Shown: one piece after another, positions 22,359-42,118 of the stretch | How positions within the stretch are numbered: position 1 is the stretch's first letter | Layout: every line of letters starts with the position of its first letter | Origin: an archaeon CG10_big_fil_rev_8_21_14_0_10_43_11 | GTDB lineage: Archaea > Nanobdellota > Nanobdellia > PEZQ01 | Length of the DNA stretch: 64,000 nucleotides | Direction of reading: 5' to 3' | Assembly: GCA_002763265.1 (NCBI GenBank) | Contig: PEZQ01000007.1 | Location: 63,368 to 127,367, forward strand | Notes under the pieces: generated by a model | The model's input: only the letters and a program-made list of their open reading frames with translations | What the model was told of the DNA's origin: nothing | Databases searched by the model: none | Translations under genes and position numbers: made by a program

Positions 22359-23127
22359 CCAACTTCATGAAACAATATGCAAATTCTCTGAGGTAAACAA
22401 AGAATATAGCCCCGATGAAGTAACGCAAAAATTCTTTCCACAGACAGTATTTCCATCAGCAAAACTGCGAATTAAAGTAATACAGAAATATTCACGAGAA
22501 AGAAGTTTTTTGCTTGATGCAGGATGTGGAACAGGATGGGTTTCTTCTGAGCTTTCGAAAAATAGGAAAATTATATCTCTAGATTTATCAGACTCTGCGC
22601 TGGGAGAAGCTAAAATGCTGAAAACATTCACAAAATCAACAAATACCTTAGTAAAAGCGGATGTTCAAAAAATTCCAATTAAAAATAAAAGCATAGATAC
22701 CATTTTTTCTTTTTCGATGATTGAGCATATACCTAATGTTAATAATGCTCTTGGTGAGTTTAAACGAATTTTAAAAAAAGATGGAAAGATAATAATACTC
22801 GTTCCAAACAAGTATGGCGCTTATTGCGTGCTCTATGATATATTGATGAATAGAGGCGGACAACACAATTATGGGAACATACGCACAGATCATGAGAACT
22901 TACAGGGCTTTTCCGCATGGAAAAATGTCTTTGAAGAGAACAATCTTAAACTATTAGAAACGCTGAATACAGAATTTCTCACACCATTCATCGCATACAT
23001 TTTCAAGAGGAGTAATAAACAACAAAAATCAACAAAAACTCTAAGGAAAATTGACTCTTTCATCGCGAAGTTCGTGCCAAAACATATTGCTTCTGCATGG
23101 ATCTTTATTTTAGAGGAGAGAAAATGA
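22351..23127 (+). CDS. Class I SAM-dependent methyltransferase
   Basis: Motif I LLDAGCGTGWVSSEL; post-I acidic residue; DTIFSFSMIEH. Confidence 0.7.
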   Translation: MNNQLHETICKFSEVNKEYSPDEVTQKFFPQTVFPSAKLRIKVIQKYSRERSFLLDAGCGTGWVSSELSKNRKIISLDLSDSALGEAKMLKTFTKSTNTLVKADVQKIPIKNKSIDTIFSFSMIEHIPNVNNALGEFKRILKKDGKIIILVPNKYGAYCVLYDILMNRGGQHNYGNIRTDHENLQGFSAWKNVFEENNLKLLETLNTEFLTPFIAYIFKRSNKQQKSTKTLRKIDSFIAKFVPKHIASAWIFILEERK

Positions 23128-23912
23128 TCTGCTTAACCGGAGACGTTCACCACATCATAAATTCAAAAGAACAACAAATCTGTGATAAAACTGAACAAGA
23201 ACTTGCAATTACTTACACAGAAATCGCAAGAAAAAATGGACTCAAAATCACACTGTTCCTAACTGGAAAATGCGCGAAGGACAAAGAATTTATTCAAACA
23301 TTACAAAACTTTGAGAACCTAGAAATTGGGGGTCACACATATAGTGCGTTCCGCCCGACAATACTATACAAATTCATGAAAAAGATGAGCGGAAAAACGT
23401 ATGGCCCGTATTTCAATCAGGCACTTGATATTTCTTGGACGATAAAAGCGTTCAAAAAGAGAGGAGTAGACATCACTTCATGGCGCACACACGCCTACGC
23501 ATCTGATGCTAACACAGTGAAAATATTACAAGAACAAGGAATAAAAGTCATATCAGATATCGTTAAACCAAATATTGAACCAAAAGAAGAAAACGGGGTA
23601 ATGATTTTACCAATTAATGTGCTGCCTGACCATGAGCATTTATATCATGGATTTAGAACAAAGACAGTTGTAACTAATTTTCTTAAAACAGGATGGACAG
23701 ATTCCTTCACCAATAAATCATTCAGTGGAGATCAATGGCTCAAACAAGTTAAGGAACAAATAAGAGAAAATGAAAAACAAGGAATTGTTTCTACATTAAT
23801 TGTCCATCCACAATGCATGTACAATCTTAACAAATTTAGCACATTTAAGCAATTATGCAAGACGTTAAAAGGATACGGAACAAGCAATGCACGGGATATC
23901 ATATGCGACTAG
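23124..23912 (+). CDS. Putative polysaccharide deacetylase-like hydrolase
   Basis: Resembles divergent carbohydrate deacetylases (MICLTGDVHH..., GGHTYSAFRP); weak assignment. Start set at the internal Met (ORF track 23097). Confidence 0.35.
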   Translation: MICLTGDVHHIINSKEQQICDKTEQELAITYTEIARKNGLKITLFLTGKCAKDKEFIQTLQNFENLEIGGHTYSAFRPTILYKFMKKMSGKTYGPYFNQALDISWTIKAFKKRGVDITSWRTHAYASDANTVKILQEQGIKVISDIVKPNIEPKEENGVMILPINVLPDHEHLYHGFRTKTVVTNFLKTGWTDSFTNKSFSGDQWLKQVKEQIRENEKQGIVSTLIVHPQCMYNLNKFSTFKQLCKTLKGYGTSNARDIICD

Positions 23913-24868
23913 ATATAATAACTGAATTCACTGAAAAAACTAAAAAACAATGGGATAATCTAATATATCATTCAAAAACAGGCACTTTCTTCCAAACAAC
24001 AGAATGGCTTGAAAGTGTACAAGCAGGATTAAACCTACCAGCAAAGCATCTAGTTGCTTACGAAACAGATAGGTTAATAGGCGTTTTCCCCAACTTCATC
24101 AAAAACAAGAGGGCAAATATCAAGAAAAACGTGTCGATACCTCTTGGCAGTGGAGGACCTGTGATCATCAAAGATGAAAAAAAAATAATACATCTCATGC
24201 TAAAATTACTTGACAAGAACCTATACTCCCAACATAAAATAATCTGTCATGACCACGCATATCTCAGATATAATGATTTTTTTAAGTTGTTTGATTACAA
24301 ATTAGACATGGATAGTTGTAGATTCATTATCGATCTTGATTCCTATAATATTAATAAAGACGTGAAACCTTCAAGAAAGCGAAAGATAAAAAACGCAAAT
24401 AAAAAGATTCAGATTTCAATCCTTCCTTTAACTGAAGATAACCTACGCACTTTTTACGCGCTCTACAGTTCATTAGTAAAAAAATTTGGTTCAACTGCTC
24501 TCCCCTTCAATTTTTTTAGTGTATTATTAGAAAAATGCGCATCAAACATTCTCTTAGTTGGCGCTTCGCTTGAAAAAATTATCATTGGCAGTCACCTGTA
24601 CATACTTGATAACTCGCGTTCAACAATATTTCACTTCCTAAGTGGGATTGAAAAAGGATATACAAATGACCATATATCTGATATACTACACAAGTATGCC
24701 CTTAACTGGAGCGTACAAAACGGATACCGGTACTATGATTTTGGTAATGCTCGCACAAATTTCGAGGATGGGTTATTCAGATACAAAGAAAGCTTTGGCG
24801 GTAGACCTGTACCAACAATCACATGGACGAAAAATTCAAAACTATATAAATTACTGAAAATAAAGTGA
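23900..24868 (+). CDS. FemAB-like / GNAT-fold acyltransferase (Acetyltransf_6-like)
   Basis: About 320 aa two-lobed GNAT-like protein (TEWLESVQAG..., ...LYILDNSRSTIFHFLSGIEKGY...YYDFG) typical of FemAB-related proteins associated with polysaccharide loci. Confidence 0.5.
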   Translation, partial: HMRLDIITEFTEKTKKQWDNLIYHSKTGTFFQTTEWLESVQAGLNLPAKHLVAYETDRLIGVFPNFIKNKRANIKKNVSIPLGSGGPVIIKDEKKIIHLMLKLLDKNLYSQHKIICHDHAYLRYNDFFKLFDYKLDMDSCRFIIDLDSYNINKDVKPSRKRKIKNANKKIQISILPLTEDNLRTFYALYSSLVKKFGSTALPFNFFSVLLEKCASNILLVGASLEKIIIGSHLYILDNSRSTIFHFLSGIEKGYTNDHISDILHKYALNWSVQNGYRYYDFGNARTNFEDGLFRYKESFGGRPVPTITWTKNSKLYKLLKIK

Positions 24869-25470
24869 TAACAATGAAAAGTATAGACTGGACATCTCTA
24901 ACCCGATATTCAAAAGAATTCAAACCAATACGGAGATATCCTCTCATATATGGCAATATCAAAGAGTTTATTGCAAGAGAAGCTCTACCTAACGCAAAAA
25001 TTCTTGACATAGGTGGGGCCGACAAAAATATGAAAAAAACAATGAAAAATAAGATATGTGTTTATAAGTCCTTTGACATCGACAAAAGAAATACGCATGA
25101 CTTCTATTCCATACATAAAATAAACGGCAGATATAACATAGTTCTAATGATTGGGATATTAGACCATTTGGAACTATCTGATGTTTACACTTACCTTAAA
25201 AAAAGTTATGATGTGCTAGACGATAACGGGTTATTGTTCATTCAAGTGAGCAATGTGTACCATCCAACAAGTCAACGACATGATCCGCAACACAGAACCT
25301 ATCTTCCTGGAAAGAACTTATATTCTCTACTAAAAATCTTAGGGTTCAAAAACATAACAATAATTAGAAACGGCGTCCATAAAAATTTTAAACTCCCATT
25401 AAAGAGAATATTGTCTTGGGCGCTTGACATAGATTACGCACCATATTTACTCATAGAAGCTAAAAAATAA
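24865..25470 (+). CDS. SAM-dependent methyltransferase (putative)
   Basis: 201 aa; AKILDIGGADKNM glycine-rich motif I-like; MIGILDHLE. Confidence 0.5.
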   Translation: MITMKSIDWTSLTRYSKEFKPIRRYPLIYGNIKEFIAREALPNAKILDIGGADKNMKKTMKNKICVYKSFDIDKRNTHDFYSIHKINGRYNIVLMIGILDHLELSDVYTYLKKSYDVLDDNGLLFIQVSNVYHPTSQRHDPQHRTYLPGKNLYSLLKILGFKNITIIRNGVHKNFKLPLKRILSWALDIDYAPYLLIEAKK

Positions 25471-25525
25471 AGACAACATCAAATTCACAAAACTATTTAT
25501 ATGATTATCAATTGTTATCTTTCAA

Positions 25526-26923
25526 ATGAAAGTTTTGCTTGTTAATCCCTACTATCCTGAAGATGTACGACGCGAAGAAGATTGGAACGGATTATGTCCC
25601 GGAAGTAAAGTAGTGCCAGAACATATGCTCCAAATAGCAGCAGAAATAAGGAAGGTGCATGACCTAAAAGTTATTGATTGCCTTATAACAAAAACAACTG
25701 TTGATGACATCAATATGCACAATTTTGATGTTGTAATTTCTATGGCCTCTTACAAATTAAAACTTGAGTATGAACTTGCCTATTTAGAGAAAGCAAAGGA
25801 AAGTGGAGCCATTACTATCCTTGTTTTAAATGACGCATATGCAGGGGGTCTTGTTATGAATGAACATCATTTCATTGATATTCTTATGAGAGAAGAGAAA
25901 GAGTTTGTCATAGAGGAATTACTTGACGCAATAGAAAAAGAACGTGACCTAAAGAACATAAAAGGCATATTATTCAGACGAAACGGGCAAATCATTTCAA
26001 CACCAAAATATGTTACAATAGATTTTTCTAAACTGCAATTTCCTGCTTATGATTTAATTGACATGAAAAAATATACTTTTTCACCTGTTCGATCAGCAAA
26101 AGGCTGTCCCTTTAAATGCACTTTTTGCCATCAAGGAGCGTTACATGGAAACCAAGCGAAGTTCGTACCTATGGAAAAGATAATTAAAACGTTATCATAC
26201 ATTAATGAATACAAAAACATCAAGAGAGTTCTTCTTCTCAATGAAGATTTTGCAGTTAATGATCAATATGTTCATGACTTATCAGAACAAATAATTAATA
26301 ATGATATTAATTTAAAATTGACAACATCATTACGAGCATACATGCTAAAGAATGAAACATTATACACATTCAGAAAAGCAGGATTTGACTTGTTGCATCT
26401 TGGTCTTGAAAGTGCAAATGACTTTATACTAAAGAAGATTAAAAAAGGTATTAATAAAAGCATGATTGAACGCGGATTAAAAAAATTGAAGAAATTCAAT
26501 TTTATAATTCATGCTTCAATGATTGTTGGATTTCCGTGGGACAGCAGAGAAACATTATTAGAAATGGAACAGTTTCTTAATGAGTTCTTTCCTAGATATA
26601 TACAAAATTTCGGTGTAAATTTTCTTGTCCCAGAACCTGGAACAGAAATATATACAACGATGAGAGAAATGAAACTAATTAACGGTCCACTACGTGGAGG
26701 TCAACGTGGCTCATTTTTATTTTTAAAACCAAACGCAAAAACACTGTACCTATCCAAAGACGAACTTGCAAGATTAAGAGAACAAATTATTCGTAATGTA
26801 CGATATAACCCTAAAAAAAGACTGCAGGTGTTTCTTAAGCAACAAACTAATGATGTGCAATTTAAAATAAGCGACGCACTAAATATATACGAACAATACA
26901 AACTTCATAAGAGCGAGGTATAA
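25526..26923 (+). CDS. B12-binding radical SAM enzyme (class B radical SAM, probable methyltransferase)
   Basis: N-terminal cobalamin-binding-like domain followed by radical SAM cluster motif CPFKCTFC (CxxxCxxC); 465 aa. Confidence 0.75.
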   Translation: MKVLLVNPYYPEDVRREEDWNGLCPGSKVVPEHMLQIAAEIRKVHDLKVIDCLITKTTVDDINMHNFDVVISMASYKLKLEYELAYLEKAKESGAITILVLNDAYAGGLVMNEHHFIDILMREEKEFVIEELLDAIEKERDLKNIKGILFRRNGQIISTPKYVTIDFSKLQFPAYDLIDMKKYTFSPVRSAKGCPFKCTFCHQGALHGNQAKFVPMEKIIKTLSYINEYKNIKRVLLLNEDFAVNDQYVHDLSEQIINNDINLKLTTSLRAYMLKNETLYTFRKAGFDLLHLGLESANDFILKKIKKGINKSMIERGLKKLKKFNFIIHASMIVGFPWDSRETLLEMEQFLNEFFPRYIQNFGVNFLVPEPGTEIYTTMREMKLINGPLRGGQRGSFLFLKPNAKTLYLSKDELARLREQIIRNVRYNPKKRLQVFLKQQTNDVQFKISDALNIYEQYKLHKSEV

Positions 26924-27963
26924 ACCTGCTTTGTTTTTTCAAAAACAATACTTGGCTTATGCTTTTTAAAATCATATTGGGGTATATTTGATTTCAGAGA
27001 GTTAACAATCGAGGAGGAAAGACCTCTTGGTGTAAAATCAGTAATGCGCGATTCTTTAGGAAAGTATGAAAATTCTGAGATAAAGTCTGGAACCAGAACT
27101 TGTGTTCCACAAAAAAGCGCCTCTAATACAACCCGACCTAACGCCTCTCTCTTTGAGGGAAGGATGAGCATTTTTGCTACGCTAATTAATGATAAAACAG
27201 CAGGAGGGTCTAATTGATCTAAATAATGGATTCTTTGATTTTTACGTGTGTACTTGGCTAAGACTTCTCCAAGAGAATTCTTGCCAATAATAACAAGATG
27301 TAATTTATCCTTTTCAAGAAATTTCATTGCTTTTATCAAATTCAAAAGACCTTTATCATTAGAGGCATCGCCAACAAAAATCAAAAAATTGACTCCATTC
27401 AATCCATAGGTAGAAATTACCTTCTCAACAAAGGACTTTTTAGGAAGCTGCGCCTCAAAAGGCAAGGGTATATAGTTTACTTTTTCTTTGTTAAGTGAGT
27501 TTACGTGTTTTTTGGTATTTTCTGACATTACGATCACTCTATCTCCTTTCGAAAAAATCTTTCTCTCACAACCTGTGTCCCTAACGTCAGTAATTAACGG
27601 CTTTCCTAAAAGTTTAGCAGCAAGGATAGTTCCATAACAGTCAACATGTGAATGCGCATGAACTATTGAAGGATTAAAAAAAGAAATAACAAAGAAAGAT
27701 AAAACAAAAGAAAGAAGATATTTTGTTCGTTCTGCTAAAGCACCAATATATCTAGTTTTCCGCAGATAATTTTTTGGTAAAACTCTAAGAAAAATAATCT
27801 TGCCACGTTTCTCAACGATTTTGGCATGTTTATTAAAAACGGTAAGCAAACAAATAGCATCTACGTCAGGATCATGCGTAAAATAGCCTACAAGCATAGC
27901 AAAGTATATACTGGCTCCGCCTCTTGTCGGTTCAAAAATAGGGCTTACCAACAGCAGTTTCAT
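26905..27963 (-). CDS. Glycosyltransferase family 4
   Basis: GT-B C-terminal motif EALGRVVLEALFCGTQVLV. Confidence 0.65.
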   Translation of the reverse strand: MKLLLVSPIFEPTRGGASIYFAMLVGYFTHDPDVDAICLLTVFNKHAKIVEKRGKIIFLRVLPKNYLRKTRYIGALAERTKYLLSFVLSFFVISFFNPSIVHAHSHVDCYGTILAAKLLGKPLITDVRDTGCERKIFSKGDRVIVMSENTKKHVNSLNKEKVNYIPLPFEAQLPKKSFVEKVISTYGLNGVNFLIFVGDASNDKGLLNLIKAMKFLEKDKLHLVIIGKNSLGEVLAKYTRKNQRIHYLDQLDPPAVLSLISVAKMLILPSKREALGRVVLEALFCGTQVLVPDFISEFSYFPKESRITDFTPRGLSSSIVNSLKSNIPQYDFKKHKPSIVFEKTKQVYTSLL

Positions 27964-29144
27964 CTAACCACTCTTAACTTCGTATAAAATATGTGCAAAG
28001 AAGATTTGTGTTTGTTCCACAGATATTTTGATTCCAAAAGTGATTTCCCATTTTTTGAAAGTAACGCTCGTAGCTTTCTATTACGCGCAAGTTGTCTAAT
28101 TTTTTTTCGAAAATTGGACCAGGTGTCTGCTATTAGAATATTTTTACCATCAGTATAGTCAAGTCCTTCTGCTCCAACTTTTGTAGAGATAACAGGAAGA
28201 GCTGCATTCCAGTAATCAAGAATCTTAAATCTCGTACCCCCTCCTTGTAACAAAGGAACGATAGCTATATCGCACCGAGATAAAAAACTGTATATATCTT
28301 CAACAAAGCCAACAACTTCAACATTTTTAGATGAGACGGAAACCTCACCCGAACCAACAACTACAAACTTAAACTCAGGCATTCTTCTTGCAATATACCG
28401 ATCAATAATCGAAATCGCTTCAAAATTTGGATAGTAGTTTAATGAACCATGAAATATGATAGTACAACCAGTCTTATCAATATTCTTAATTTCATACGAA
28501 GACGCCAACGCATTAGGAATTACCAAAATGTAATCTTTGAGGCCATGCTTTTGTAAAATCGTTTTATCAAGATTAGATGGAACAATAACACCATCAGCTA
28601 ACTTCAAACAAAATAGTTCCCAACTCTTAAGAAGAGATGCTGCTGGCGATTTTCCCTTGCTTCTTAGAACCTTATGAAACTCAATATTATGTTCATCAAC
28701 AACCAGTTTTAATCCTAAAAGACGTGTTAGAAAAAAAGCACCTACAGATAATGCGGGAAATTCAACTTGAATGATATCGAGTTTATGTTTCTTAGCAACA
28801 TATAATACTTTTAAAAAAAGATCTATCCTATACGAAAAAGAGATGTGCGCGGCTTCTGAAAGCGGGAAAGAATTAGAACCACCCAGTATAAAAAATAGAA
28901 ACGAAATTATATTATCAAAAAGAAAGTAAATTGGCAGAAAAAGATAATAAGACATAAAAAGTGGAGTTGGATATTTTAACCTATCAGAATTAGCATAGTA
29001 AAAATTATTTTTATGCACTATGAAAGAATCTACCTGCTTAGATAGTCCACTAATACGAGCAATAGCTCCCGCACTAGAATTTTTTCCAGCAGTATTCTCA
29101 AGATTTAAGTATGTTAAAAAAGCAACTCTCATGACCGCACACAC
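27960..29144 (-). CDS. Glycosyltransferase family 4
   Basis: GT-B organisation; LLQGGGTRFKILDYWNAALPVISTKVGAEG; 4-nt overlap with downstream gene. Confidence 0.65.
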   Translation of the reverse strand: MCAVMRVAFLTYLNLENTAGKNSSAGAIARISGLSKQVDSFIVHKNNFYYANSDRLKYPTPLFMSYYLFLPIYFLFDNIISFLFFILGGSNSFPLSEAAHISFSYRIDLFLKVLYVAKKHKLDIIQVEFPALSVGAFFLTRLLGLKLVVDEHNIEFHKVLRSKGKSPAASLLKSWELFCLKLADGVIVPSNLDKTILQKHGLKDYILVIPNALASSYEIKNIDKTGCTIIFHGSLNYYPNFEAISIIDRYIARRMPEFKFVVVGSGEVSVSSKNVEVVGFVEDIYSFLSRCDIAIVPLLQGGGTRFKILDYWNAALPVISTKVGAEGLDYTDGKNILIADTWSNFRKKIRQLARNRKLRALLSKNGKSLLESKYLWNKHKSSLHIFYTKLRVVR

Positions 29145-29229
29145 AACTTTTTAGTATGGAATACACTATTAAGGATTCTGATATCACAGATGAAAAAAAA
29201 TAGTGCGAGTTCAACAAGAAACGATAGCT

Positions 29230-30297
29230 CTACTGGTCAGACTTAAATACACCCTGTAGCAGATTATGTAAGCTCTCGCCAACAGAACTAAAAGAATAGT
29301 TTTTTAAAACAGTTTTCCGTGCATTAGAACCCGTTTTGTGAAACTTGGAGAAATTTTTTGACATCTTGTTGATATAATTGACGATCTCATCATTATTTAG
29401 CAAGATAATATCGCTATCTAAATTGAACTCATTAAGACCTTCAACACCCTTATCATTAGTGATGGTTGGAATCTCACAAGCAGCTGCTTCTAGAATCTTA
29501 TTAAGACTACCTGAGGTCTTAAATAATGGGATTACTAATAGAACATGATTAGATGCCAAAATATCTGCGTAATTTTCCACATAACCCAAGTAATGAATAG
29601 TTTTAGAGTCAGATTTTTGAGGTGATTTTCCTATAACAAAAAACTCGATATTAGAAGAAAAACATGCCACGTTTTCCTCAACAAAATTAAGCGTGTTTTT
29701 ATTATACACAGAATCGAAAGGACCAACAAGTGCTACTCTAAACACATCATTGTTTTTTCTTTTTGGATAGAAAACGCTTTCATCAATAATATTATTTATT
29801 GTTTGAATCTTTTTAACACCATATTCCCTACGATAATACTTAGTAATATTTCTTGAAGCACAAATAACAAAATCACTCTGCCTAATTATAAATCTCTCAA
29901 GTAATGACTTTCTTCTGGTAACATGAAACTCCCTTGATTCTTCGGAGATGATCCCATGAAAATCGTATATCAATCTTATTCTCTTAAGTTTTGCCACTAC
30001 TGCGATTAAGAAAAAGCCATGTAAAACGCCTGAAACAAGAAATACGTCATAAGTTCGTGACATAAAGAGCAATATTTTCAAATACCATAAGAGACTATAC
30101 AATGGATAAAGAAAAGATTTAAACATTGGGGGGATTCTAGAAAGCAAAAAAGGAGTCTTTTCAAACGTAGACAAGACTTTGACATTATATGAGGGTTCTA
30201 ACATAGATGCAAAATTCTTAGGCCTAACAATATTACCACAATTTTTACTCCAATCTCCAAACACAATAAGCCCTATCTTCACAAAATGAGTATACAA
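29230..30297 (-). CDS. Glycosyltransferase (GT4-like)
   Basis: SGSLNKILEAAACEIPTITNDKGVEGL C-terminal sugar-donor binding motif. Confidence 0.6.
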   Translation of the reverse strand: MYTHFVKIGLIVFGDWSKNCGNIVRPKNFASMLEPSYNVKVLSTFEKTPFLLSRIPPMFKSFLYPLYSLLWYLKILLFMSRTYDVFLVSGVLHGFFLIAVVAKLKRIRLIYDFHGIISEESREFHVTRRKSLLERFIIRQSDFVICASRNITKYYRREYGVKKIQTINNIIDESVFYPKRKNNDVFRVALVGPFDSVYNKNTLNFVEENVACFSSNIEFFVIGKSPQKSDSKTIHYLGYVENYADILASNHVLLVIPLFKTSGSLNKILEAAACEIPTITNDKGVEGLNEFNLDSDIILLNNDEIVNYINKMSKNFSKFHKTGSNARKTVLKNYSFSSVGESLHNLLQGVFKSDQ

Positions 30298-30323
30298 GAA
30301 TTAAAAATAAAAAGTAATAGGTA

Positions 30324-31958
30324 CTACTCTACTTTATATACAGAAATTATTTGAGAAAACACCTTTGTTGTCGGGTCTTTGCCACTTTTTGTGTAAACTA
30401 AATCTAAATGTGAATCATTCGATTCGCTTGCTATATAGTCTGAAAGATAAGGCCACCGCTCATAATGACGTAAAGGATATAAGTGAAGAACAATCAGATA
30501 GTCAACTGAATGATTTTCTATCAATCGCTCAAATTCTATTCTTCTTCTTGGAACGCTTGTTATTTCTTGATTCGCATATACGGTAAGCGCAGTATACGCA
30601 TTAGAGAGGATACTATCAGACGAATTCGTATTTTGGAATATCCAGCTAGCAGCATCTGATAAAAACTCGTCAGATTGAACAGGAAAAAACAGAGATGAAA
30701 AACTAATTAAAACAACAAAGAGGAGGGTTACTGCTAAGAAAAATATACGAGGAGTAAAGACTTTTTTGAAGCTGTACACTACAAGAAAAGAAAATATTGG
30801 TAAAACAAACAGAAGATGTCTTGTTCCATGAGCCCAGTAGACTAAAATAAAAGCAAAGACAGAATAATAAAAAATAAGAATCGCTAATAATATTTGTTTT
30901 GGTATTTTACGCTTACCCAGAAATATAAGAAGTGGTAATCCTATCAACAGAGCAGTGTGACCAAATAGAGAGGCTAGCCTATTTTGAATTATTCCGAGAT
31001 TATCTGATAACGAACGCAAAAATTCAAAGGAGTCTGTTACTAAAAAACTTAAACTCGGCAAGGAAAAAACAAGTAAAACAAAACTCATAATTAAAAAAAG
31101 TTTTATTTTTTTGGAACGGGAAAAGAAGAATAAAGGGAAGAAAATAAAGGAAGATTGTTTAATCAAAAAAGAAAGGGTAAGAAAAATATATGAACTAAAC
31201 AAGAGCGATCTATTCCTTTCTTTGCTATATCTTAAGAATAAGAATAAGCTAAAAGATAATGTAATCGCTAAAAAAATATCAGAGTATAAACGTGGTGAGT
31301 TAAACCATACTGTAGGAAAAACAACTACCAGTAAAGAAGCAAACCACGCTAAACGTTTTGAAAAAAGTGAGCCGATAAGATAGGTAACTATTGGTAATAG
31401 AGATGATAAAAAAATCATCACATAACGCAAAAATAGAAGAGAAAAATGAAGTTCACCGAAAAAAGCAAGAACAAGAGAGAAGAATACACGGAAAATATTT
31501 GAAAGGGCTAAAAAAGTGGAAGGGTGTAAAATAGACCAGGCGTAAGCATATTCATCCTCGGTACCCATCATATGTAAGTTCCGCGTCAGTTGTAAAACTA
31601 AAAAAATAAAAGAAAGGCAGATTATAAAAAGTTCCGATTTCTCAGGATTCACCTGTTTATTGAAGTCTAAAAGGTGCAAGATTGTAAGAACAACAATAAA
31701 CAAGTTGCAAAATAGTAGAGCGCTAATACTAATAAAGTAACTTAAAAACTGTATAATTGAAAAAATACTCAACACTCCTAAAATACCAGCAATCAAAAGC
31801 TCAAGAAAAGAAAAGAGTTTATTAAATGGTTTAAACAAGGTTGCAAAACCAATACCAATAAAGGGTAGTGACAGAACTACAAGAAAGAGAGTATTCTCCT
31901 CTAGTAAGCCTATGTTTAATAAAACCAACCCTATAAGCGGATAAAGCCAAATACGCAT
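30324..31958 (-). CDS. GT-C-type membrane glycosyltransferase or glycan polymerase (ArnT/PMT-like)
   Basis: 544 aa; more than 10 N-terminal TM helices followed by a roughly 120-aa soluble C-terminal domain, the topology of GT39/GT83-like enzymes. Confidence 0.4.
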   Translation of the reverse strand: MRIWLYPLIGLVLLNIGLLEENTLFLVVLSLPFIGIGFATLFKPFNKLFSFLELLIAGILGVLSIFSIIQFLSYFISISALLFCNLFIVVLTILHLLDFNKQVNPEKSELFIICLSFIFLVLQLTRNLHMMGTEDEYAYAWSILHPSTFLALSNIFRVFFSLVLAFFGELHFSLLFLRYVMIFLSSLLPIVTYLIGSLFSKRLAWFASLLVVVFPTVWFNSPRLYSDIFLAITLSFSLFLFLRYSKERNRSLLFSSYIFLTLSFLIKQSSFIFFPLFFFSRSKKIKLFLIMSFVLLVFSLPSLSFLVTDSFEFLRSLSDNLGIIQNRLASLFGHTALLIGLPLLIFLGKRKIPKQILLAILIFYYSVFAFILVYWAHGTRHLLFVLPIFSFLVVYSFKKVFTPRIFFLAVTLLFVVLISFSSLFFPVQSDEFLSDAASWIFQNTNSSDSILSNAYTALTVYANQEITSVPRRRIEFERLIENHSVDYLIVLHLYPLRHYERWPYLSDYIASESNDSHLDLVYTKSGKDPTTKVFSQIISVYKVE

Positions 31959-32020
31959 AAGAAAAGATTACCTAACAGCAGAATTTAAAGTTATTATCAA
32001 TCAAAACTATAGAGAAATCA

Positions 32021-33076
32021 CTAACAAATCTGTTCATATAACTGAGAAACTCTCTGCAAAATAAGAGACCACGAATGATTCTTCATTACGAAATTCCTAC
32101 CGTTTCTTTTAAGCTTTAAACGTAACTCCTTGTTTATAATAATATCAAACATTGCAGCTTCTAATGAATCAATATCTCCAGAATCAATAATCATGGCAGA
32201 ATGCTCTTCCTCAAGAATTCTATGACCCCCAACAGCAGTAGTGATGACTGGAAGCCCAGCTGATAAAGCTTCTAACACTGTTAGTGAAAATCCTTCAAAG
32301 TATGAGGGGTTAAGAAGAACATCTGCTTTATTAAAGACAGTAGGCATGTTAGCATGCGAAATGCTGCCCAAATAAGTAACACCTTCAGTTTCTTTTGCAA
32401 GAGACAAGAGGGATCCCTTACCTGCAACTAAGAGTTGAACAGTTTTATATTTAGCATGCACGCGTTCAAATGCAGAAATTACATCATGAAATCCCTTTGC
32501 TTTTGTCAGACTTGACGCAAAAAGAAACGTGTTTGAAAAACGCTTTTGAACAGGGTAAAAAAGCTCAGTATCAACTGGATTCGGCAGATATGAAGAGGAA
32601 ACTTTGTTAATTTCGCTCTGGTAGCTTCTCTGTGAATTCCTATCACAAAACGCAACGTGATCTGGAGAGAAAAGTGACAACATGATTTTTTTATAGTGGT
32701 TAGAACCTGCGTTTGGCGTTTTAAGAGAATTGAGGGAATGAAAAAGAAAAGGAACTTTTGTTTTTAGAGAGACAACTCGAAGTGCTGGTATTGAAGACCA
32801 AGAAACGGAATGAATGATATCACATTCTTTGAAATATGCGACATGTTTCAAGATAGATCTGCTATTCTTAAAAAAACGAATCGGAAACGACGCAGTAGTG
32901 TTTGAAAGCGCATTCGTAAATGCAGCTTTGATTTTTTCTTCATTATTAGAAAAAGAAAAAATAGTGGTTTCAATACCCTTTTTTTGCAAAGAAACAGCTA
33001 AATCATGGATATGATTAGTTCCACCATAGTTATGGTCAGAAAGATTCATATCATCAATAATAAGACAAGCTTTCAT
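32021..33076 (-). CDS. Glycosyltransferase family 4
   Basis: YFEGFSLTVLEALSAGLPVITTAVGG motif. Confidence 0.7.
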   Translation of the reverse strand: MKACLIIDDMNLSDHNYGGTNHIHDLAVSLQKKGIETTIFSFSNNEEKIKAAFTNALSNTTASFPIRFFKNSRSILKHVAYFKECDIIHSVSWSSIPALRVVSLKTKVPFLFHSLNSLKTPNAGSNHYKKIMLSLFSPDHVAFCDRNSQRSYQSEINKVSSSYLPNPVDTELFYPVQKRFSNTFLFASSLTKAKGFHDVISAFERVHAKYKTVQLLVAGKGSLLSLAKETEGVTYLGSISHANMPTVFNKADVLLNPSYFEGFSLTVLEALSAGLPVITTAVGGHRILEEEHSAMIIDSGDIDSLEAAMFDIIINKELRLKLKRNGRNFVMKNHSWSLILQRVSQLYEQIC

Positions 33077-33720
33077 TATCTCACTCCTACCTTCTTTGCT
33101 ATCACTACAGTATAGGGTGCAATAAGTTTAAGAGGGAATCCTATTCCCTTTGTCCGGATAATTTCAAAACCACTATCTTGAAGTAATTTTTGTATCGTGG
33201 CAAAGGACCTACTGCATAACAGAAATTCATCACTGCTTTTTTTTCGATATCTCCACCACAAGAGGGGGTTACATGAATTTTTGAACTCAAAAATTAGAAT
33301 TCCTTCTTTCTTAAGAACGGCGTGCATTTGTTTAAGAGAGTTGACAACAACATCATCGGGAAGGTGGTGCATCACATCCACACAAAGAACAAAATCGAAG
33401 GAACTGTCCCTGAACGGTAAATTTTCCGCATCAGCATTAACGGGGCAGGGTGGAAACTGAACAGTCTTCTTAAAAAATTGCAACATATTAAATGAAAAAT
33501 CAACTGAAACAACAGATAAGCCGCGTTTAAGTAGTTGCGAAGAGTAAATACCAGGACCACAACCAAGGTCAAGTAACGTGCCTGAACGATTTTCTAAAAA
33601 ATCAAGCACGTAAGATAGTTCTCTTTTTTTAAGACGACCCCATGGTTTTGAGTCATCAAACATAGCCATAGGGGGGTCATTATCATAATGTTTTCTAATA
33701 TTATCTTTAGCGATTACCAT
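33076..33720 (-). CDS. Class I SAM-dependent methyltransferase
   Basis: LLDLGCGPGIYSSQL motif I; CVDVMHHL. Confidence 0.7.
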   Translation of the reverse strand: MVIAKDNIRKHYDNDPPMAMFDDSKPWGRLKKRELSYVLDFLENRSGTLLDLGCGPGIYSSQLLKRGLSVVSVDFSFNMLQFFKKTVQFPPCPVNADAENLPFRDSSFDFVLCVDVMHHLPDDVVVNSLKQMHAVLKKEGILIFEFKNSCNPLLWWRYRKKSSDEFLLCSRSFATIQKLLQDSGFEIIRTKGIGFPLKLIAPYTVVIAKKVGVR

Positions 33721-34327
33721 TTTTTATCACAGCGATATAAAAATGTCTAAATGGCTTAGAATAGTTCTCATACAACACTTTTGCCCCAGACTGCTCATAC
33801 AATTCATGCCATTCAGTTAATGTTCTATACTTTGTTCCCCCATCAAGACATTTCCACCATATATTCTTTATCAAACGCACAAACCCCTTGTTGGAATTAA
33901 TATTATCCAATATTAACGTGTAGCTTGAAACACGTAATGATTCCTCAATAGCATAAACTACTTTACCAATAGGTATATGATGCACAACCGATGACAAAAC
34001 GCTCAAATCAAAACTGTTATCACGGAAGGGAGCATTTTCTGCGCGACCTACGACAAATGACTTAGTTAGGTTAGATGCATGTTTAACCATTTCAAAACTT
34101 GGATCTATTCCATAAAATTTTTCAACATCCAATCCTAAATTCGTTTGTAAATCCCCCCGACCACAACCAAGATCAACAATAGAACGAACATTAAACCTTA
34201 AAACTATATCTTGAACGTCCCATGTCTTCTTAAAATAACGCTTAGCATATTTCCCTACTCTTGATAAAAGCACTATCTTCATTCGATAAAGTGAGGGTGT
34301 ATCAAATATCCTTTCTTGTAAACTCAT
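33707..34327 (-). CDS. Class I SAM-dependent methyltransferase
   Basis: IVDLGCGRGDL motif I; VLSSVVHHI. Confidence 0.7.
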   Translation of the reverse strand: MSLQERIFDTPSLYRMKIVLLSRVGKYAKRYFKKTWDVQDIVLRFNVRSIVDLGCGRGDLQTNLGLDVEKFYGIDPSFEMVKHASNLTKSFVVGRAENAPFRDNSFDLSVLSSVVHHIPIGKVVYAIEESLRVSSYTLILDNINSNKGFVRLIKNIWWKCLDGGTKYRTLTEWHELYEQSGAKVLYENYSKPFRHFYIAVIKNGNR

Positions 34328-35430
34328 TTTAATATCCCCTTATAAAAATTAATCGTAGCTAAACCAACATGTTTCCATGAATATTTTAAAGCTATAACCC
34401 CTTTTAATTTGTATCCTACCTGCGTAATATCTCTTTTATTGTTAATAAACTTCATAATAGCTCTACCCAACGCCTTACCCGAATAAGGTTCTATAACCAC
34501 TCCTAGTTTCTCCTTTAAAAATAATTCAGAAACACCCGCACCATACGTAACAATCACTGGTTTGCCCATAGCGCCGGCTTCAAGGGCAACCATACCAAAA
34601 CTTTCCTCAATCGACGGGGAGGGTAGCACGAACACATCACACTCTTCATACATCTTTAGAAGCTCTTTTTCTGGGAGAAAGTTCCGAAAAATTATTTTTC
34701 TCTCAAGACCAAGTTCAAGTACTTTTTTCTTAATCATTGCTTCTTGCGGACCATTGCCAACAATAGTAAAACTCACCTTTTCATTCTCGAGTAACTTTGC
34801 AGCGTCAACTAAATAGTCCAATCCCTTATAACGTCGTAAAGCACCCACAAACAAGACTTGTAACGGAGAATGAAGATTTCTCTTTTTGGCAACAAATTTT
34901 TTCGTGTCAACACCATGATAAATAACGTTTATTTTCTTCTTGTACCTTGAAAGAAATTTTGATGATTTAATTGCCTTACGCGAATTAACAATGATACCTG
35001 CAGCATGCTTCAAAATGAAAGTATAACAAAACTTATTATACAACGAAGAAGGCAATCCGAAAAACCAGTTCATGCGAATCTCTTTACCATGAGAATAGAC
35101 AACATAGGTCTTTCTCGCAATAATACATGCAAGAGCCCCAATATCTAAAAAAATAGGATGCGGATAATGGAGTTGCACGATATCCGCATCAGACTTCAAA
35201 ATTTCAAAGAAAATCCCTAAAGAAAAAGGCATACCAAGAATGGATAGTGATTTAACTCGCTTTATGGGAATTCCATCCATAACTTCAAAAGATTTTTTAG
35301 AGCCTAAAGTCGAGGTAAGCACTGAAACATCATGACCTTGTTTCATCATTTCTTTGCTCAAATAATACACGTAGTAAGGCACCCCACCTTTTCGTGGAAG
35401 AAACGTTGAAGGAACTTGCAATATCTTCAT
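34324..35430 (-). CDS. Glycosyltransferase family 4
   Basis: ESFGMVALEAGAMGKPVIVTYGAGVSE motif. Confidence 0.75.
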   Translation of the reverse strand: MKILQVPSTFLPRKGGVPYYVYYLSKEMMKQGHDVSVLTSTLGSKKSFEVMDGIPIKRVKSLSILGMPFSLGIFFEILKSDADIVQLHYPHPIFLDIGALACIIARKTYVVYSHGKEIRMNWFFGLPSSLYNKFCYTFILKHAAGIIVNSRKAIKSSKFLSRYKKKINVIYHGVDTKKFVAKKRNLHSPLQVLFVGALRRYKGLDYLVDAAKLLENEKVSFTIVGNGPQEAMIKKKVLELGLERKIIFRNFLPEKELLKMYEECDVFVLPSPSIEESFGMVALEAGAMGKPVIVTYGAGVSELFLKEKLGVVIEPYSGKALGRAIMKFINNKRDITQVGYKLKGVIALKYSWKHVGLATINFYKGILK

Positions 35431-36518
35431 CCAAACAATTCCTCCATTAGTGGTACGACACGCGCGTCAACAGGTATTCCCAAAACCCGCGAAGCCAGAC
35501 TATCCGAAACAGGACACACCCCTCTCTCAACAGGAAACCCACCAAACAAGGAAACTGCTTCAACCCCTTGCTTCTTTAGTCTGAGGATTGTATTCGCTTT
35601 ATAGTCTGTTGAAAACATAAGACGATTAAACGTGCTTTTTCCATTTTCTTTTTGCACAACAAAGCCGTGTTCACTTAGTTTTTTCCTCAAGAGAAGTGAC
35701 ACTTTTCGTCTATGCTCTAATTCAAGGGAAAAGTCACGCAATTTCACAATTCCCAGTGACGCGAGATACTGTGACGGATTCGCAGCTAATTGCGATGATA
35801 GATGGGCATATTGAGTTTTGAGACGTTTCTGTTTGACAAAATGTCCTGCATATGAATAGACTGTTTCATTAGTAAGGACAGACGCCACAAAATTTCGTAC
35901 GAAATTCGTTAGGCCTTGTGATGAAAAGGCAACACGCTGTTTTATGAATGAGTGCACCCCCTCATTATTTGTTGCAACAGATCCTAAACCACCAAGGGCA
36001 AGCGATTTTCCCAAACCAAAACTAAAAATAGTTGCATCAGCAAAAGAACCTACACACCTATTTTTGTATCGTGCACCAAATGCGGTTGCTGCATCATCAA
36101 TAAAAAAAAGTTCATTATCCTGACAAAAATCGTGCAACTCATCTAAGCGCGCAGGATTACCAAAAGGGTCAACTGAAATAAGAATCTTTGAACCAGTTTT
36201 TGCAAAATCCACATTTTCTGAGTCAAGCGCATAATCCTCACTACGCACGTCAGCAAGAACAGGTTTTGCCCCAGCATATTTCACAACGTCTGCAACAATG
36301 TCTGCAGTAAACGCGGGCATGACAACTTTTGACGGCGCGCCAGCGTACTTTAGTAGGTGAAACAATGCCTGTCTTCCAGATGCACAGAGCGCAACATATT
36401 TTACTCCCAAAAAGTCACTCAGTTCCTTCTCGAACTGGGATATGGATTGCTTGTTCATCCTAAAAAGTGCAGTGTATGCTTCGTTCAGACTTAATTGAGG
36501 TGTGTGAGCAGGAATCAA
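35427..36518 (-). CDS. DegT/DnrJ/EryC1/StrS-family PLP-dependent sugar aminotransferase
   Basis: 363 aa; fold-type I aminotransferase pattern with Asp (FFIDDAATAFGA) and Lys-containing loop (SFGLGKSLA). Confidence 0.7.
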   Translation of the reverse strand: MIPAHTPQLSLNEAYTALFRMNKQSISQFEKELSDFLGVKYVALCASGRQALFHLLKYAGAPSKVVMPAFTADIVADVVKYAGAKPVLADVRSEDYALDSENVDFAKTGSKILISVDPFGNPARLDELHDFCQDNELFFIDDAATAFGARYKNRCVGSFADATIFSFGLGKSLALGGLGSVATNNEGVHSFIKQRVAFSSQGLTNFVRNFVASVLTNETVYSYAGHFVKQKRLKTQYAHLSSQLAANPSQYLASLGIVKLRDFSLELEHRRKVSLLLRKKLSEHGFVVQKENGKSTFNRLMFSTDYKANTILRLKKQGVEAVSLFGGFPVERGVCPVSDSLASRVLGIPVDARVVPLMEELFG

Positions 36519-37535
36519 CTACGGAAACCTCCGTTTTATCTGAGGGCCGATATAGGGATTGCATAAGACTCTTTGAGCATGCTTGACAAGCGGAGAAAGA
36601 AAAAGAAATTTTTTCTTATCTATGCTCTCCCCTTTTACGTGCACGCTATTGAGAATGGCTTGTTTTGAACCCCACTTGCTTTTAAAACGCATATACGAAT
36701 CACGGGGTTGGGTTCTACCAAAATCTATGCGAGAACAGCCTACATCTAATGCATGTTTTATTTGTTCATTATACAGCACATCATTTGACATGCAAGAACT
36801 ATATGATAAGTTAGAGGCCATGTTCCACATAAGTGCTGTTTTTCCATGATAAAACGTAAGCATCACTCCAATAGGGATTTCATACGTATAGCACATGGTA
36901 AAACGGGCACAGTTCACATATGAGTTTATATTCGTAAATAATGACTTTGCATGCGGCGGACTTCCCAATTCTTTCATTCGTTTGATATAGAATGAATAGT
37001 ATGTATCAATATCCTTGGTTTCACACACATGAATGCCTGAATTATTTGCTTTACGGATTGCTTTTCGAATTCCAGATTTTTTTGTGTAAACACCATGCCA
37101 AATATCATTATCAAAATCTTTTCCAGCAATGTCAAGATAGTACAGGTAACCATTCAGTTTCTTGTTCTCATGGGCAATAGGATAAAATGGAGACTCTCTA
37201 AATTCGATAACGTCCGCATCAAATGACTTGTAAAATTCAATAAATTTTTGTATATCCTCAACTCTGTTGACAAGAGGATACCCGTACTCAGCAAAAGGCT
37301 GAGAAACAATAGAGTTACCCTTAATTGTTTTAACAAGAAAAGCAGGGCAAACACCAACAATCTTGCCTTTATCCTCGAGAATAGTGTAAAGTGGTTTGTA
37401 GCCATACGTTTCTTCTAACACTCGCTTCCAACCAAGCGTGTGAAAAATAGTGCTATGCGGATGTTTTTTGACATACTCATGATAGGTGCGTTCTTGTGCT
37501 GATTCCAGCAATTTTACCGGCATTGTATTTAACAA
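36519..37535 (-). CDS. FemAB-like / GNAT-fold acyltransferase (second copy)
   Basis: 338 aa, same two-lobed architecture as 23900-24868. Confidence 0.5.
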   Translation of the reverse strand: MLNTMPVKLLESAQERTYHEYVKKHPHSTIFHTLGWKRVLEETYGYKPLYTILEDKGKIVGVCPAFLVKTIKGNSIVSQPFAEYGYPLVNRVEDIQKFIEFYKSFDADVIEFRESPFYPIAHENKKLNGYLYYLDIAGKDFDNDIWHGVYTKKSGIRKAIRKANNSGIHVCETKDIDTYYSFYIKRMKELGSPPHAKSLFTNINSYVNCARFTMCYTYEIPIGVMLTFYHGKTALMWNMASNLSYSSCMSNDVLYNEQIKHALDVGCSRIDFGRTQPRDSYMRFKSKWGSKQAILNSVHVKGESIDKKKFLFLSPLVKHAQRVLCNPYIGPQIKRRFP

Positions 37536-38359
37536 CCTCCATGATATGTTATCACGTTCTTAGGATACAAGTTAAGCATATCACGAAAACAAGTGAAATT
37601 AAAATCTTCATCTTGCAACGTATCCAAAACAGAACCAAACACACTTTGATAATAGTTTCCTGTTCTCCAGCGAACTCTAAACGGGAGAGGTGTTGATGCC
37701 AGATTAAGAAATTCCCAAGGGTGAAAATACAAACAAATTGTCTGCGAGTGCGCAGTCAAACGTTGCACCCCATCTAAAACAAATTGTTTTCCAAGCAAGC
37801 GAACCCACGCACCACCCAAGGGCAATTTAAAAACAGGATGAACTGACAACGGAAATTCAGGAATACTCATATTTTGAGGAAATTTCTTACCGCCATAAAA
37901 AAAAGGTATTTTAATGCTTGGCATATAAGAGCTACTATACTGATACCCGGCTTGCTTAAGCAGGTGATAATCTTCGTGGTTCATGCTAAACGTTGGAGCT
38001 CGAAAGCCAATCACTTTTTTTCCTGAAATTTTTTCAAGCACCTTCTTAGATTCCACAACTTCTCGTCTAAAATCATCTTTTGTACAGCGGTTAAGAAACG
38101 GGTGCGTTTGAGAATGTGACGCGATTTCATGTTTTCGCGCAATTTCTTTGATTATATGTTGGTTCTTTTGGGCAAACTCACCTACCACGAAAAACGTTGC
38201 CAAAACATCGTGATTGGCCAACATATCAAGAATCAAACCAAGCGCGTGAGAAAGGTCTAGGTCAAGCTCATCTTTTCTCACGCCCCGTCTCAACGCTTTT
38301 TTTCCTGCAGGAATGTGATACAAGTTCTCAACATCAAAGGAAATAATTGCTTGTTTCAC
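37529..38359 (-). CDS. Polysaccharide deacetylase family protein
   Basis: N-terminal ISFDVEN...LATFFVVGEFAQKN...HEIASHSQTHP resembles NodB-type deacetylases (DVE in place of D-D, His-containing motif). Confidence 0.6.
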   Translation of the reverse strand: MKQAIISFDVENLYHIPAGKKALRRGVRKDELDLDLSHALGLILDMLANHDVLATFFVVGEFAQKNQHIIKEIARKHEIASHSQTHPFLNRCTKDDFRREVVESKKVLEKISGKKVIGFRAPTFSMNHEDYHLLKQAGYQYSSSYMPSIKIPFFYGGKKFPQNMSIPEFPLSVHPVFKLPLGGAWVRLLGKQFVLDGVQRLTAHSQTICLYFHPWEFLNLASTPLPFRVRWRTGNYYQSVFGSVLDTLQDEDFNFTCFRDMLNLYPKNVITYHGGC

Positions 38360-40953: not shown

Positions 40954-40959
40954 TACGTA

Positions 40960-41754: not shown

Positions 41755-41769
41755 GACATAACCACCAGT

Positions 41770-42018: not shown

Positions 42019-42118
42019 AACACTGTGTTTTAATTAAACTGCATTAATAAGCATTACGCCTCTGAGCTGGAGTACTGACGAAATACTTTTATTATACTGC
42101 CCGTTAAAGTAGTGCGTT

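Follow-up and report, generated by a model that had tools for sequence, protein, structure and literature searches.

What would an archaeon make with two copies of a gene pair that encodes a sugar de-N-acetylase and a FemAB-like transferase? The question is raised by a 64,000-nucleotide stretch of DNA, here called the window, from the archaeon CG10_big_fil_rev_8_21_14_0_10_43_11 (Nanobdellota; contig PEZQ01000007.1, positions 63,368 to 127,367). An original prediction, made from the sequence alone, had listed two FemAB-like acyltransferases, two polysaccharide deacetylases and a DegT aminotransferase between 23900 and 38359, and had proposed that they decorate an amino sugar with an amino acid in a locus resembling the exopolysaccharide (EPS) loci associated with exosortases. 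All five genes are present at or within a few bases of the positions it gave, and its span holds them, except that most of the first deacetylase gene lies to the left of 23900. Because four other metagenome contigs carry identical DNA and the homologues are conserved, these are real genes and not chance open reading frames (ORFs). The present analysis suggests that a two-gene module, a cytoplasmic CE4 enzyme followed by a FemABX-fold transferase, is present twice in a DPANN-type surface-glycan island and probably makes an N-aminoacyl amino sugar. An aminoacylated amino sugar is thus regarded as a likely product of the locus.

The two gene pairs

The genes of the two pairs are as follows.

23124-23912, + strand: deacetylase #1, a divergent CE4/NodB de-N-acetylase of 262 amino acids, recognized by its family profile
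23903-24868, + strand: FemAB-like #1, a FemABX-fold transferase (PF04339, PF13480)
37529-38359, - strand: deacetylase #2, a CE4/NodB de-N-acetylase (PF01522, 81 bits) with a C-terminal DUF3473 domain (PF11959, 42.6 bits)
36519-37535, - strand: FemAB-like #2, a double-GNAT FemABX-fold transferase and predicted aminoacyl-tRNA:sugar-amine aminoacyltransferase (PF13480, PF02388)

In both pairs the deacetylase gene lies directly upstream of the FemAB-like gene. Deacetylase #1, listed as an ORF at 23097-23912 (+) with its true start at 23124, ends 10 nt inside FemAB-like #1, whose ORF (23855-24868, +) has its likely start at ATG 23903. In the second pair the overlap is ~7 nt if FemAB-like #2 starts at TTG 37535, or the genes are separated by a 5-nt gap if the start is ATG 37523.

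The two FemAB-like proteins are distant paralogues (16% identity), and both exceed Pfam gathering scores: FemAB-like #1 for PF04339 (34.6 bits, cut-off 27) and PF13480 (26.3 bits, cut-off 22), and FemAB-like #2 for PF13480 (39.7 bits, cut-off 22) and PF02388 (30.3 bits, cut-off 24). The top NCBIfam match of each is TIGR03019, at 64.4 bits for #1 and 123.6 bits for #2, neither reaching the cut-off of 260.35. The original prediction had proposed searches against FemAB (PF02388), Acetyltransf_6 (PF13480) and two TIGRFAMs given by number. PF13480 is indeed passed by both proteins and PF02388 by #2, the numbers TIGR03019 and TIGR03006 are correct and prove to be the top NCBIfam matches of both FemAB-like proteins and of deacetylase #2, respectively, and the Pfam and TIGR03019 matches place neither FemAB-like protein in an unrelated GNAT family.

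Deacetylase #2 scores 134 bits against TIGR03006 (cut-off 276.2), and its motifs, FDVEN (residues 8-12), HSQTH (82-86), RAP (120-122) and FHPWE (212-216), appear compatible with the DUF3473/TIGR03006 type. Deacetylase #1 taken alone falls under the Pfam cut-offs (PF01522, 20.1 versus 23.1; DUF2334, 24.1 versus 26) and gave no match to TIGR03006. Judged by sequence, its family (233 representatives at E<=1e-3) clearly belongs to NodB/CE4: PF01522 is matched by 28 of the 30 members scanned, and the family profile matches 27 solved CE4 enzymes, the best at E 1.4e-7. Residues D7, H9, H71, R121, H123 and H228 are conserved, and the metal-binding motif is a variant, GHTYxxF instead of HxxxH. The catalytic motif of both deacetylases begins within the first ten residues (motif 1 of #2 at residue 8). 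Since no signal peptide or transmembrane segment is found in the sequences of the two CE4 and two FemAB-like proteins, all four are predicted to be cytoplasmic and to act on precursors, not on an exported polymer.

The second pair lies within an operon that also contains the following genes.

38703-39401, - strand: GT2 glycosyltransferase of the polyprenyl-phosphate-sugar synthase type (AglJ/PpgS/ArnC-like), head of the conserved operon (PF00535, 79.5 bits)
38356-38607, - strand: small membrane protein, DUF2304-like by synteny (53% identity to a gene of the sister genome L005 annotated PF10066)
35427-36518, - strand: DegT/DnrJ/EryC1-family pyridoxal phosphate (PLP)-dependent sugar aminotransferase (PF01041, 143.5 bits)
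34324-35430, - strand: GT4 glycosyltransferase, a member of the conserved block (PF00534, 131 bits)

The order is GT2, small membrane protein, CE4, FemAB-like, DegT and GT4. The stop of the small membrane ORF overlaps the start of deacetylase #2, the first base of DegT directly follows the stop codon of FemAB-like #2, and the GT4 gene overlaps DegT by 4 nt. The best NCBIfam matches of DegT (PseC, LegC, DesI, WecE and ArnB) are all far under their cut-offs; the protein contains an SFGLGK motif with K171, which we take to be the PLP lysine. The GT2 scores 102 bits against AglJ, 96 against PpgS and 33 against ArnC, and is found at the equivalent place in L005 and in a Methanoperedens locus (L010); the GT4 is syntenic and 60% identical in L005. 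Between 38608 and 38706 the DUF2304-like frame stays open for ~33 codons upstream of the first ATG, GTG or TTG, with similarity to the 117-amino-acid homologue of the sister genome, and the small ORF may use ATA or ATT as a non-canonical start that overlaps the GT2 stop.

FemABX fold and acyl donor

AlphaFold2 (AF2) models of FemAB-like #1 and #2, with predicted local distance difference test (pLDDT) values of 76 and 86.4, respectively, were compared with the PDB using Foldseek. The best matches of the #1 model are FemX, with template modelling (TM) scores of 0.70-0.73 (FemX_Wv, E 2.8e-14), and Sba18/Sbb17. The top 11 matches of the #2 model are all aminoacyl-tRNA-dependent enzymes, with FemX at TM 0.69-0.73 (FemX_Wv, E 1.2e-16), and this model also matches FemA and aminoacyl-phosphatidylglycerol synthases. 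The highest target-normalised TM scores among the structural matches, 0.74-0.79, belong to Sba18/Sbb17. Across both models FemX and Sba18 score 0.65-0.79, whereas the tandem GNATs that use acetyl-CoA score lower: 0.33-0.47 for VipF and Eis, and up to 0.59 for the tandem GNAT of the clavulanate pathway.

The same affiliation is seen in the C-terminal segments, which were aligned after the sequences of FemA and part of FemX had been rebuilt from the PDB search. Among FemX_Wv, FemA, FemX_Sa and four archaeal proteins, the sole invariant column is FemX Lys305, with an aromatic residue before it; F304-K305 of FemX aligns with the conserved Y294-K295 of FemAB-like #1 and with F280-K281 of FemAB-like #2. 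Lys305 is described in the literature as the catalytic residue of FemX. The acetyl-CoA P-loop motif [QR]xxGx[GA] occurs in neither FemAB-like protein, which lends indirect support to aminoacyl-tRNA as the donor. We infer that aminoacyl-tRNA is the donor and a sugar amine the acceptor. In sequence searches of the PDB, FemAB-like #1 as a single sequence found nothing relevant, and the profile of FemAB-like #2 found only Sbb17 (E 0.028).

Relationship to known systems

Of the systems tested by experiment, the Wbp/Vim pathway of Porphyromonas gingivalis and Tannerella forsythia, with VimE, VimA and the aminotransferase WbpE, comes closest to the locus. In P. gingivalis, VimE, a CE4 enzyme, and the TIGR03019-matching VimA give rise to 2-N-seryl or 2-N-glycyl sugars, as seen by genetics and mass spectrometry, and exchanging vimA exchanges the amino acid, from Ser to Gly, in vivo (PMC7468200). 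VimA determines the amino acid that the sugar amine receives; its relation to TIGR03019 is taken from that paper's description. The window has in common with this system a CE4 enzyme, a TIGR03019-related double-GNAT enzyme, a DegT-family aminotransferase, a surface-glycan pathway and, as predicted, cytoplasmic action before export. It is unlike it in having an archaeal host, two copies of the module, a conserved neighbour of the polyprenyl-phosphate-sugar synthase type (GT2) and no type IX secretion system (T9SS) or PorU. Because the host is an archaeon, the carrier in the window should be dolichol. Homologues of WbpA, WbpB, WbpD and WbpS are not present in the island, so the sugar should not be 2-N-seryl-3-N-acetylglucuronamide; the scanned island ORFs gave no UDP-sugar dehydrogenase, GFO/IDH/MocA or hexapeptide-repeat matches, and Wbp genes may lie elsewhere in the genome.

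Other systems resemble parts of the locus. Like FemX, FemA, FemB and MurM, the FemAB-like proteins have the double-GNAT fold (TM ~0.7), the aromatic-Lys motif and Pfam matches above gathering scores; unlike them, they show only 10-17% identity, lack the coiled-coil insertion, come from a host with no murein and have a sugar amine, not a peptide, as their predicted acceptor. Orf11 of the BD-12 pathway is described in the literature as a FemX-like enzyme that glycylates streptothrisamine in a Gly-tRNA-dependent manner, and the streptothricin-type enzymes Orf11, Sba18 and Sbb17 are likewise FemX-like users of aminoacyl-tRNA that acylate an amino group of streptothrisamine, which contains an amino sugar; the PDB entries of Sba18 and Sbb17 were crystallised with it. 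These enzymes differ in belonging to Streptomyces secondary metabolism, in having a small-molecule acceptor and in their ~14% identity.

The Arn route (ArnB, ArnC, ArnD and ArnT) and the mycobacterial PpgS/Rv3779 route make lipid-linked amino sugars. The window resembles them in having a DegT enzyme, a polyprenyl-phosphate-sugar GT2, a CE4 family whose members deacylate lipid-linked sugars and a GT-C of the PMT_2 type; this is a likeness of gene content and order, not orthology (ArnC scores only 33 bits). We know of no aminoacylation step in either route. A TIGR03006 deacetylase paired with a TIGR03019 FemAB-family protein is what Haft et al. reportedly described in 2006 for XrtA/PEP-CTERM loci. 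The kinship with such loci that the original prediction had drawn holds as far as the best curated matches and the adjacency of the two genes are concerned, and some island GT4s have weak best or near-best matches to the XrtA-system glycosyltransferase families stp1/stp2. However, all three proteins score only 25-49% of the trusted cut-offs, which makes them relatives and not members of these families, and the window has no XrtA, EpsI, PEP-CTERM, chain-length or tyrosine-kinase genes and no TIGR03108 partner.

Within the archaea, the sulfated wall heteropolysaccharide of Halococcus morrhuae contains N-glycyl-glucosamine bridges, according to PMC4187196, which cites Steber & Schleifer (1979). 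On that account, an amino acid is amide-linked to hexosamine nitrogen in a sulfated archaeal polymer, as predicted for the window, which carries sulfate-activation and sulfo-sugar genes; the organism is a different one, and the chemistry was described there without assigned genes.

The N-aminoacylated amino sugar of the original prediction thus gains support from the FemX/Sba18-like fold, the equivalent of Lys305, the missing acetyl-CoA motif and the Wbp/Vim precedent. The same evidence bears on the best-surviving alternative, that the FemAB-like proteins are acyl-CoA-dependent N-acyltransferases that re-acylate the sugar amine with another short acyl group. The strongest Pfam match of FemAB-like #2 is Acetyltransf_6, a GNAT family; the fold searches list VipF, Eis, the clavulanate GNAT and a glucosamine N-acetyltransferase, each with probability 1.0; and VimA itself was once described as a putative acetyl-CoA transferase (PMC7468200). 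This explanation is nevertheless unlikely, given the gap in TM score between acetyl-CoA GNATs (0.33-0.59) and FemX/Sba18 (0.65-0.79), the conserved Lys305/aromatic motif, the lack of a Q/RxxGxG/A motif for the CoA pyrophosphate and the change from Ser to Gly produced in vivo by swapping vimA (PMC7468200).

Several points weigh against an aminoacyl transfer in the window. The function of these archaeal clades is predicted from sequence, structural models and gene context. The cut-offs of TIGR03019 and TIGR03006 are missed widely. A profile comparison with FemA using hhalign was not significant (probability 1%), so the link to FemX rests on the Pfam matches, the fold and one motif, and the model of FemAB-like #1 is only moderately confident, with pLDDT below 50 near the Lys motif. 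Deacetylase #1 is without the second His of the canonical metal-binding motif and, to judge from its sequence, could be inactive or altered in activity. Even for the bacterial system, VimA is said to "presumably" transfer the amino acid, after earlier work on it as an acetyl-CoA transferase (PMC7468200). Finally, the scanned island ORFs include none of the Wbp genes that feed the Vim pathway (UDP-GlcNAc dehydrogenase, WbpB-type oxidase and WbpD acetyltransferase), so the sugar must differ from the Wbp/Vim sugar. Each protein falls in a known family and the predicted chemistry has bacterial precedent, which makes its archaeal instance credible and not unprecedented.

The surface-glycan island and a predicted pathway

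The setting of the two pairs is defined by three further features.

13477-46920, no strand: surface-glycan island of ~33 kb, between tRNA-Met and the backbone gene DUF2207
19811-21277, + strand: MOP/Wzx-type flippase (PF13440, 52.9 bits; PF01943, 41.4 bits; PF03023, 38.4 bits)
30324-31958, - strand: PMT_2-type GT-C membrane glycosyltransferase, ArnT/AglS-like (PF13231, 27.9 bits, cut-off 26.1)

The GC content of the island is 0.32-0.39, versus 0.44-0.47 in its flanks. The tRNA-Met(CAT) gene (13400-13476) and DUF2207 (from 46921) are ~33 kb apart in the window and 1.4 kb apart in L015 (12554-15808), a Nanoarchaeota metagenome-assembled genome (MAG), which marks the glycan region as an island set into a conserved backbone. 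A 10-kb stretch of L015 encompasses the XPF-exosortase genes, tRNA-Met, DUF2207, LemA, TldD/PmbA and LonB but no glycan genes. The part of the island from 32.0 to 46.6 kb, including pair 2, is common to the window and the sister genome; the 21 kb fetched from the sister contig contain nothing that corresponds to the part of lowest GC, from 13.9 to 30.3 kb, where pair 1 lies.

By Pfam and NCBIfam, the island contains seven GT4s, one GT2, one GT-C, a flippase, five S-adenosylmethionine (SAM) methyltransferases and a B12-radical SAM enzyme, together with a GDP-fucose-synthase-like short-chain dehydrogenase/reductase (SDR), a dehydratase/epimerase-like SDR, CysD, a CysN-like GTPase, a sulfoquinovose synthase-like gene and a thioredoxin. 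No chain-length determinant or tyrosine kinase, EpsB-type priming transferase or TIGR03108 amidotransferase is among the Pfam and NCBIfam matches of the island ORFs. Measured against the Agl systems, the island resembles an archaeal protein- or surface-glycan cluster of the agl type rather than an EPS locus: the AglJ/PpgS-like GT2, Wzx-type flippase, PMT_2 enzyme, methyltransferases and sulfoquinovose synthase-like gene form an agl-like set, and the EPS-locus reading of the original prediction is not supported.

In the pathway that we infer from these genes, a CE4 enzyme would first remove the N-acetyl group of an amino-sugar precursor on the cytoplasmic side, the precursor being linked either to a nucleotide or to dolichol phosphate. 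The FemAB-like enzyme would then move an amino acid from charged tRNA onto the freed sugar amine to give an N-aminoacyl amino sugar, while DegT and one of the SDR enzymes would supply a second amino group on the same or a neighbouring sugar. After flipping, the modified sugar would become part of a surface glycan that is heavily methylated and probably contains a sulfo-sugar. A lipid-linked version, in which dolichol-phosphate-linked N-acetylhexosamine is deacetylated and aminoacylated before flipping, is suggested by the conserved order of GT2, CE4 and FemAB and by the PMT_2 GT-C in the island, in analogy to ArnC/ArnD/ArnT and PpgS/Rv3779. The GT-C, which has a 40% identical homologue in L005, is a candidate for transfer of the lipid-linked sugar at the outer face of the membrane.

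Further features of the island and its surroundings were recorded. Genes for the supply of a sulfo-sugar occupy 39724-45227 and are syntenic in L005. They comprise the CysN-like GTPase (39724-40953), which scores 300.6 bits against TIGR02034 (under 336) and 327 bits against an EF-1alpha model (under 502); CysD (NF003587, 341 bits, over the cut-off of 195); a UDP-sulfoquinovose synthase-like enzyme of 506 amino acids (425.7 bits, under 575); an alkaline-phosphatase-superfamily "Phosphodiest" protein; and the thioredoxin. No reductase or kinase for adenosine phosphosulfate or phosphoadenosine phosphosulfate (APS/PAPS) was seen in the window. The CysN-like GTPase was considered as an EF-1alpha-like carrier of aminoacyl-tRNA and rejected, since its neighbour passes CysD and the pair is grouped with the sulfoquinovose synthase-like gene. 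The regions 22351-26923 and 33076-34327 hold four to five SAM methyltransferases, an unusually high methylation capacity for one glycan cluster, and the B12-binding radical SAM enzyme has its best matches among methylases of the BchE/PhpK/HpnJ type. A scan for promoters and terminators was uninformative, because the counts match the shuffled expectation (25 sites versus 24.3, and 11 versus 8.9) and the consensus is bacterial while the host is archaeal. Large predicted surface proteins flank the island (1501-8325 and 14468-16778), one of 1732 amino acids with an MG2 domain and one of 544 amino acids with Ig-like domains. Further downstream, lonB (57649-60081) is split into two ORFs, the upstream one ending in an intein splicing domain; the gene contains an intein or is possibly disrupted.

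Conservation of the gene pair and the exosortase question

FemAB-like #2 has 45 homologue clusters, the named ones from Methanosarcinales-type archaea (Argoarchaeum, Methanothrix and Methanoperedens), and a 60% identical copy in the sister genome. In a tblastn survey of the fetched loci, a deacetylase #2-type gene lies within 1.5 kb of a FemAB #2-type gene in 13 related loci, DegT is immediately downstream of the FemAB gene in 7 of the 10 related loci with room downstream, and an exosortase and EpsI are near the FemAB gene in one of the six lineages for which 3 kb or more of upstream sequence is available. These counts are small because the profile scan of genome contigs gave three loci and the metagenome scan ten. 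The deacetylase-FemAB(-DegT) block recurs in Methanosarcinales, Methanoperedens, Methanothrix and Woesearchaeota, a related block is found in Haloferax, and the CE4-FemAB pairing is also seen in L027/L028. The original prediction had called the combination unusual for an archaeon, a view that the 45 clusters and the related blocks in Woesearchaeota and Haloferax do not bear out. FemAB-like #1 has few relatives; the nearest, P0047, is itself preceded by an overlapping CE4 gene, and another comes from Haloferax. It belongs to a glycan cluster of Haloferax sp. MBLA0076 (L013, 5994-15819) in which two FemAB-like genes stand in tandem, accompanied by CE4, Phosphodiest, DegT and flippase genes.

One Methanosarcinales MAG (GCA_023139555.1; L008/L009) has the CE4-FemAB-DegT block within 2 kb, directly after three sorting genes. 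This bacterial-type PEP-CTERM system (L009, 5801-8140) comprises a PEP-CTERM protein (5801-6295; VPEP, a transmembrane segment and SRKKE; TIGR02595, 23 bits, cut-off 16), an exosortase (TIGR02602, 145 bits, cut-off 105.6; XrtA, 148.6 bits, under 208) and EpsI, and was probably acquired horizontally. The CE4 directly after it passes TIGR03006 (281.9 bits versus 276.2); the FemAB homologue reaches 152.4 bits for TIGR03019, still under 260.35. L009 also carries a second pair of CE4-like and FemAB-like genes, whose FemAB is 24% identical to FemAB-like #1; BLASTP detects no similarity between its CE4-like protein and deacetylase #1, so the second pairs of the window and of L009 are not simple orthologues. 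A tRNA-Thr(CGT) gene directly follows DegT in L009 (12267-12341), possibly by chance; staphylococcal Fem enzymes use dedicated tRNA isoacceptors. In three Methanosarcinales-type lineages, CPBP/Rce1-like intramembrane proteases with weak matches to the CTERM-sorting proteases MrtS/MrtJ lie a few kb from the deacetylase-FemAB block (L006, 1-748; L008/L009, 4503-5246; L010, 3765-4520).

The exosortase-family gene of the window is as follows.

9374-9997, + strand: small exosortase/archaeosortase-family protein (TIGR04178, 61.3 bits, cut-off 23)

The protein is a genuine family member, as the original prediction had it, and its catalytic-motif Cys and Arg align with an XrtA-like enzyme; no subfamily cut-off is reached (XrtA, 16.3 bits versus 208; EpsH, 20.8 bits versus 105.55), and its homologues are found in DPANN archaea (Nanoarchaeota, Parvarchaeota and Aenigmatarchaeota). 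The link to the cluster that the prediction had drawn from it was not borne out. In the window, the sister genome and the Nanoarchaeota MAG the gene always directly follows an XPF nuclease gene; its position is outside the island, with ~57 kb separating it from the FemAB block in the sister genome. It was consequently rejected on synteny as a component of the system: it is a backbone gene, and its nearness to the island is therefore not evidence of a functional link. The short XPF/ERCC4 nuclease and the exosortase-family gene of ~205-216 amino acids form a conserved pair (window, 8412-9997; L014, 9252-10651; L015, 9263-10615). EpsI and PEP-CTERM proteins gave no matches in the window, and no PEP-CTERM-like motif was found as a shared C-terminal sorting signal among its proteins. 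Two unrelated C-terminal tails with a transmembrane segment and basic residues occur, in ORFs 1501-3126 (541 amino acids) and 14468-15154 (228 amino acids); these two proteins could be archaeosortase substrates, although they have no common motif.

A second alternative extends the proposed product to a further role, as the amine acceptor to which an exosortase or archaeosortase ligates the C-termini of sorted proteins. The PorU sortase of the T9SS links cargo C-termini to the Vim-made sugar, and Veith et al. (2020) raised the possibility that the acceptor is produced by the TIGR03019 proteins of exosortase loci (PMC7468200). In L008/L009 the block lies within 2 kb of a PEP-CTERM protein, an exosortase and EpsI, with a CE4 that passes TIGR03006, and the genome of the window has an exosortase-family gene whose product carries the Cys and Arg motifs. 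This is, however, the backbone gene beside XPF, outside the island, an exosortase is nearby in only one of the six lineages, and no PEP-CTERM-like signal common to the window proteins was found. ArtA, to our knowledge the one studied archaeosortase, uses a lipid amine. For this window the exosortase link is circumstantial and not supported, and such a role for the sugar is doubtful, a shade more so than the use of acyl-CoA. The wider form of the idea, in which the free alpha-amine of the CE4- and FemAB-made sugar serves as the exosortase or archaeosortase acceptor in archaea and bacteria alike and the same pair makes the N-glycyl-glucosamine bridges of Halococcus, is no less speculative.

That the FemAB-like enzymes act instead on the amine of a peptide or protein, in a wall cross-bridge or surface protein, the sugar genes being unrelated, is very improbable: the structurally characterised FemA and FemX enzymes all extend peptides on peptidoglycan precursors, and a homologue of FemAB-like #1 (P0048) has a non-glycan gene context, but the host is archaeal (LonB, DPANN-type relatives), the window has no Mur genes or Mur-type peptide ligases, the genes sit inside a glycan operon, translational coupling to a sugar de-N-acetylase gene is common to both pairs and many other genomes, and the fold acts on sugar amines as well, as Sba18/Sbb17 and VimA illustrate.

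Implications

The literature searched yielded no described role of FemABX proteins in archaea and no link of FemAB to archaeal glycosylation, and TIGR03019 is mentioned there in a single paper. Interest in the predicted N-aminoacyl amino sugar is raised by the presence of the module twice and by the related Methanosarcinales loci. The relative that lies beside a PEP-CTERM protein, an exosortase and EpsI makes it testable what exosortases attach their substrates to; if the sugar were the acceptor, the sorted surface proteins of archaea would be anchored to glycan by way of an amino-acid linking sugar, as in bacteria with a T9SS. Haloferax sp. MBLA0076 is cultured, and both the aminoacyl-sugar prediction and the link to the N-glycyl-glucosamine of Halococcus can be tested there. 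The prediction, if true, would provide a gene-level explanation for that component of the Halococcus wall, found in 1979. It would also make charged tRNAs a source of amino acids for the surface glycans of archaea and so define a new class of glycan modification in this domain.

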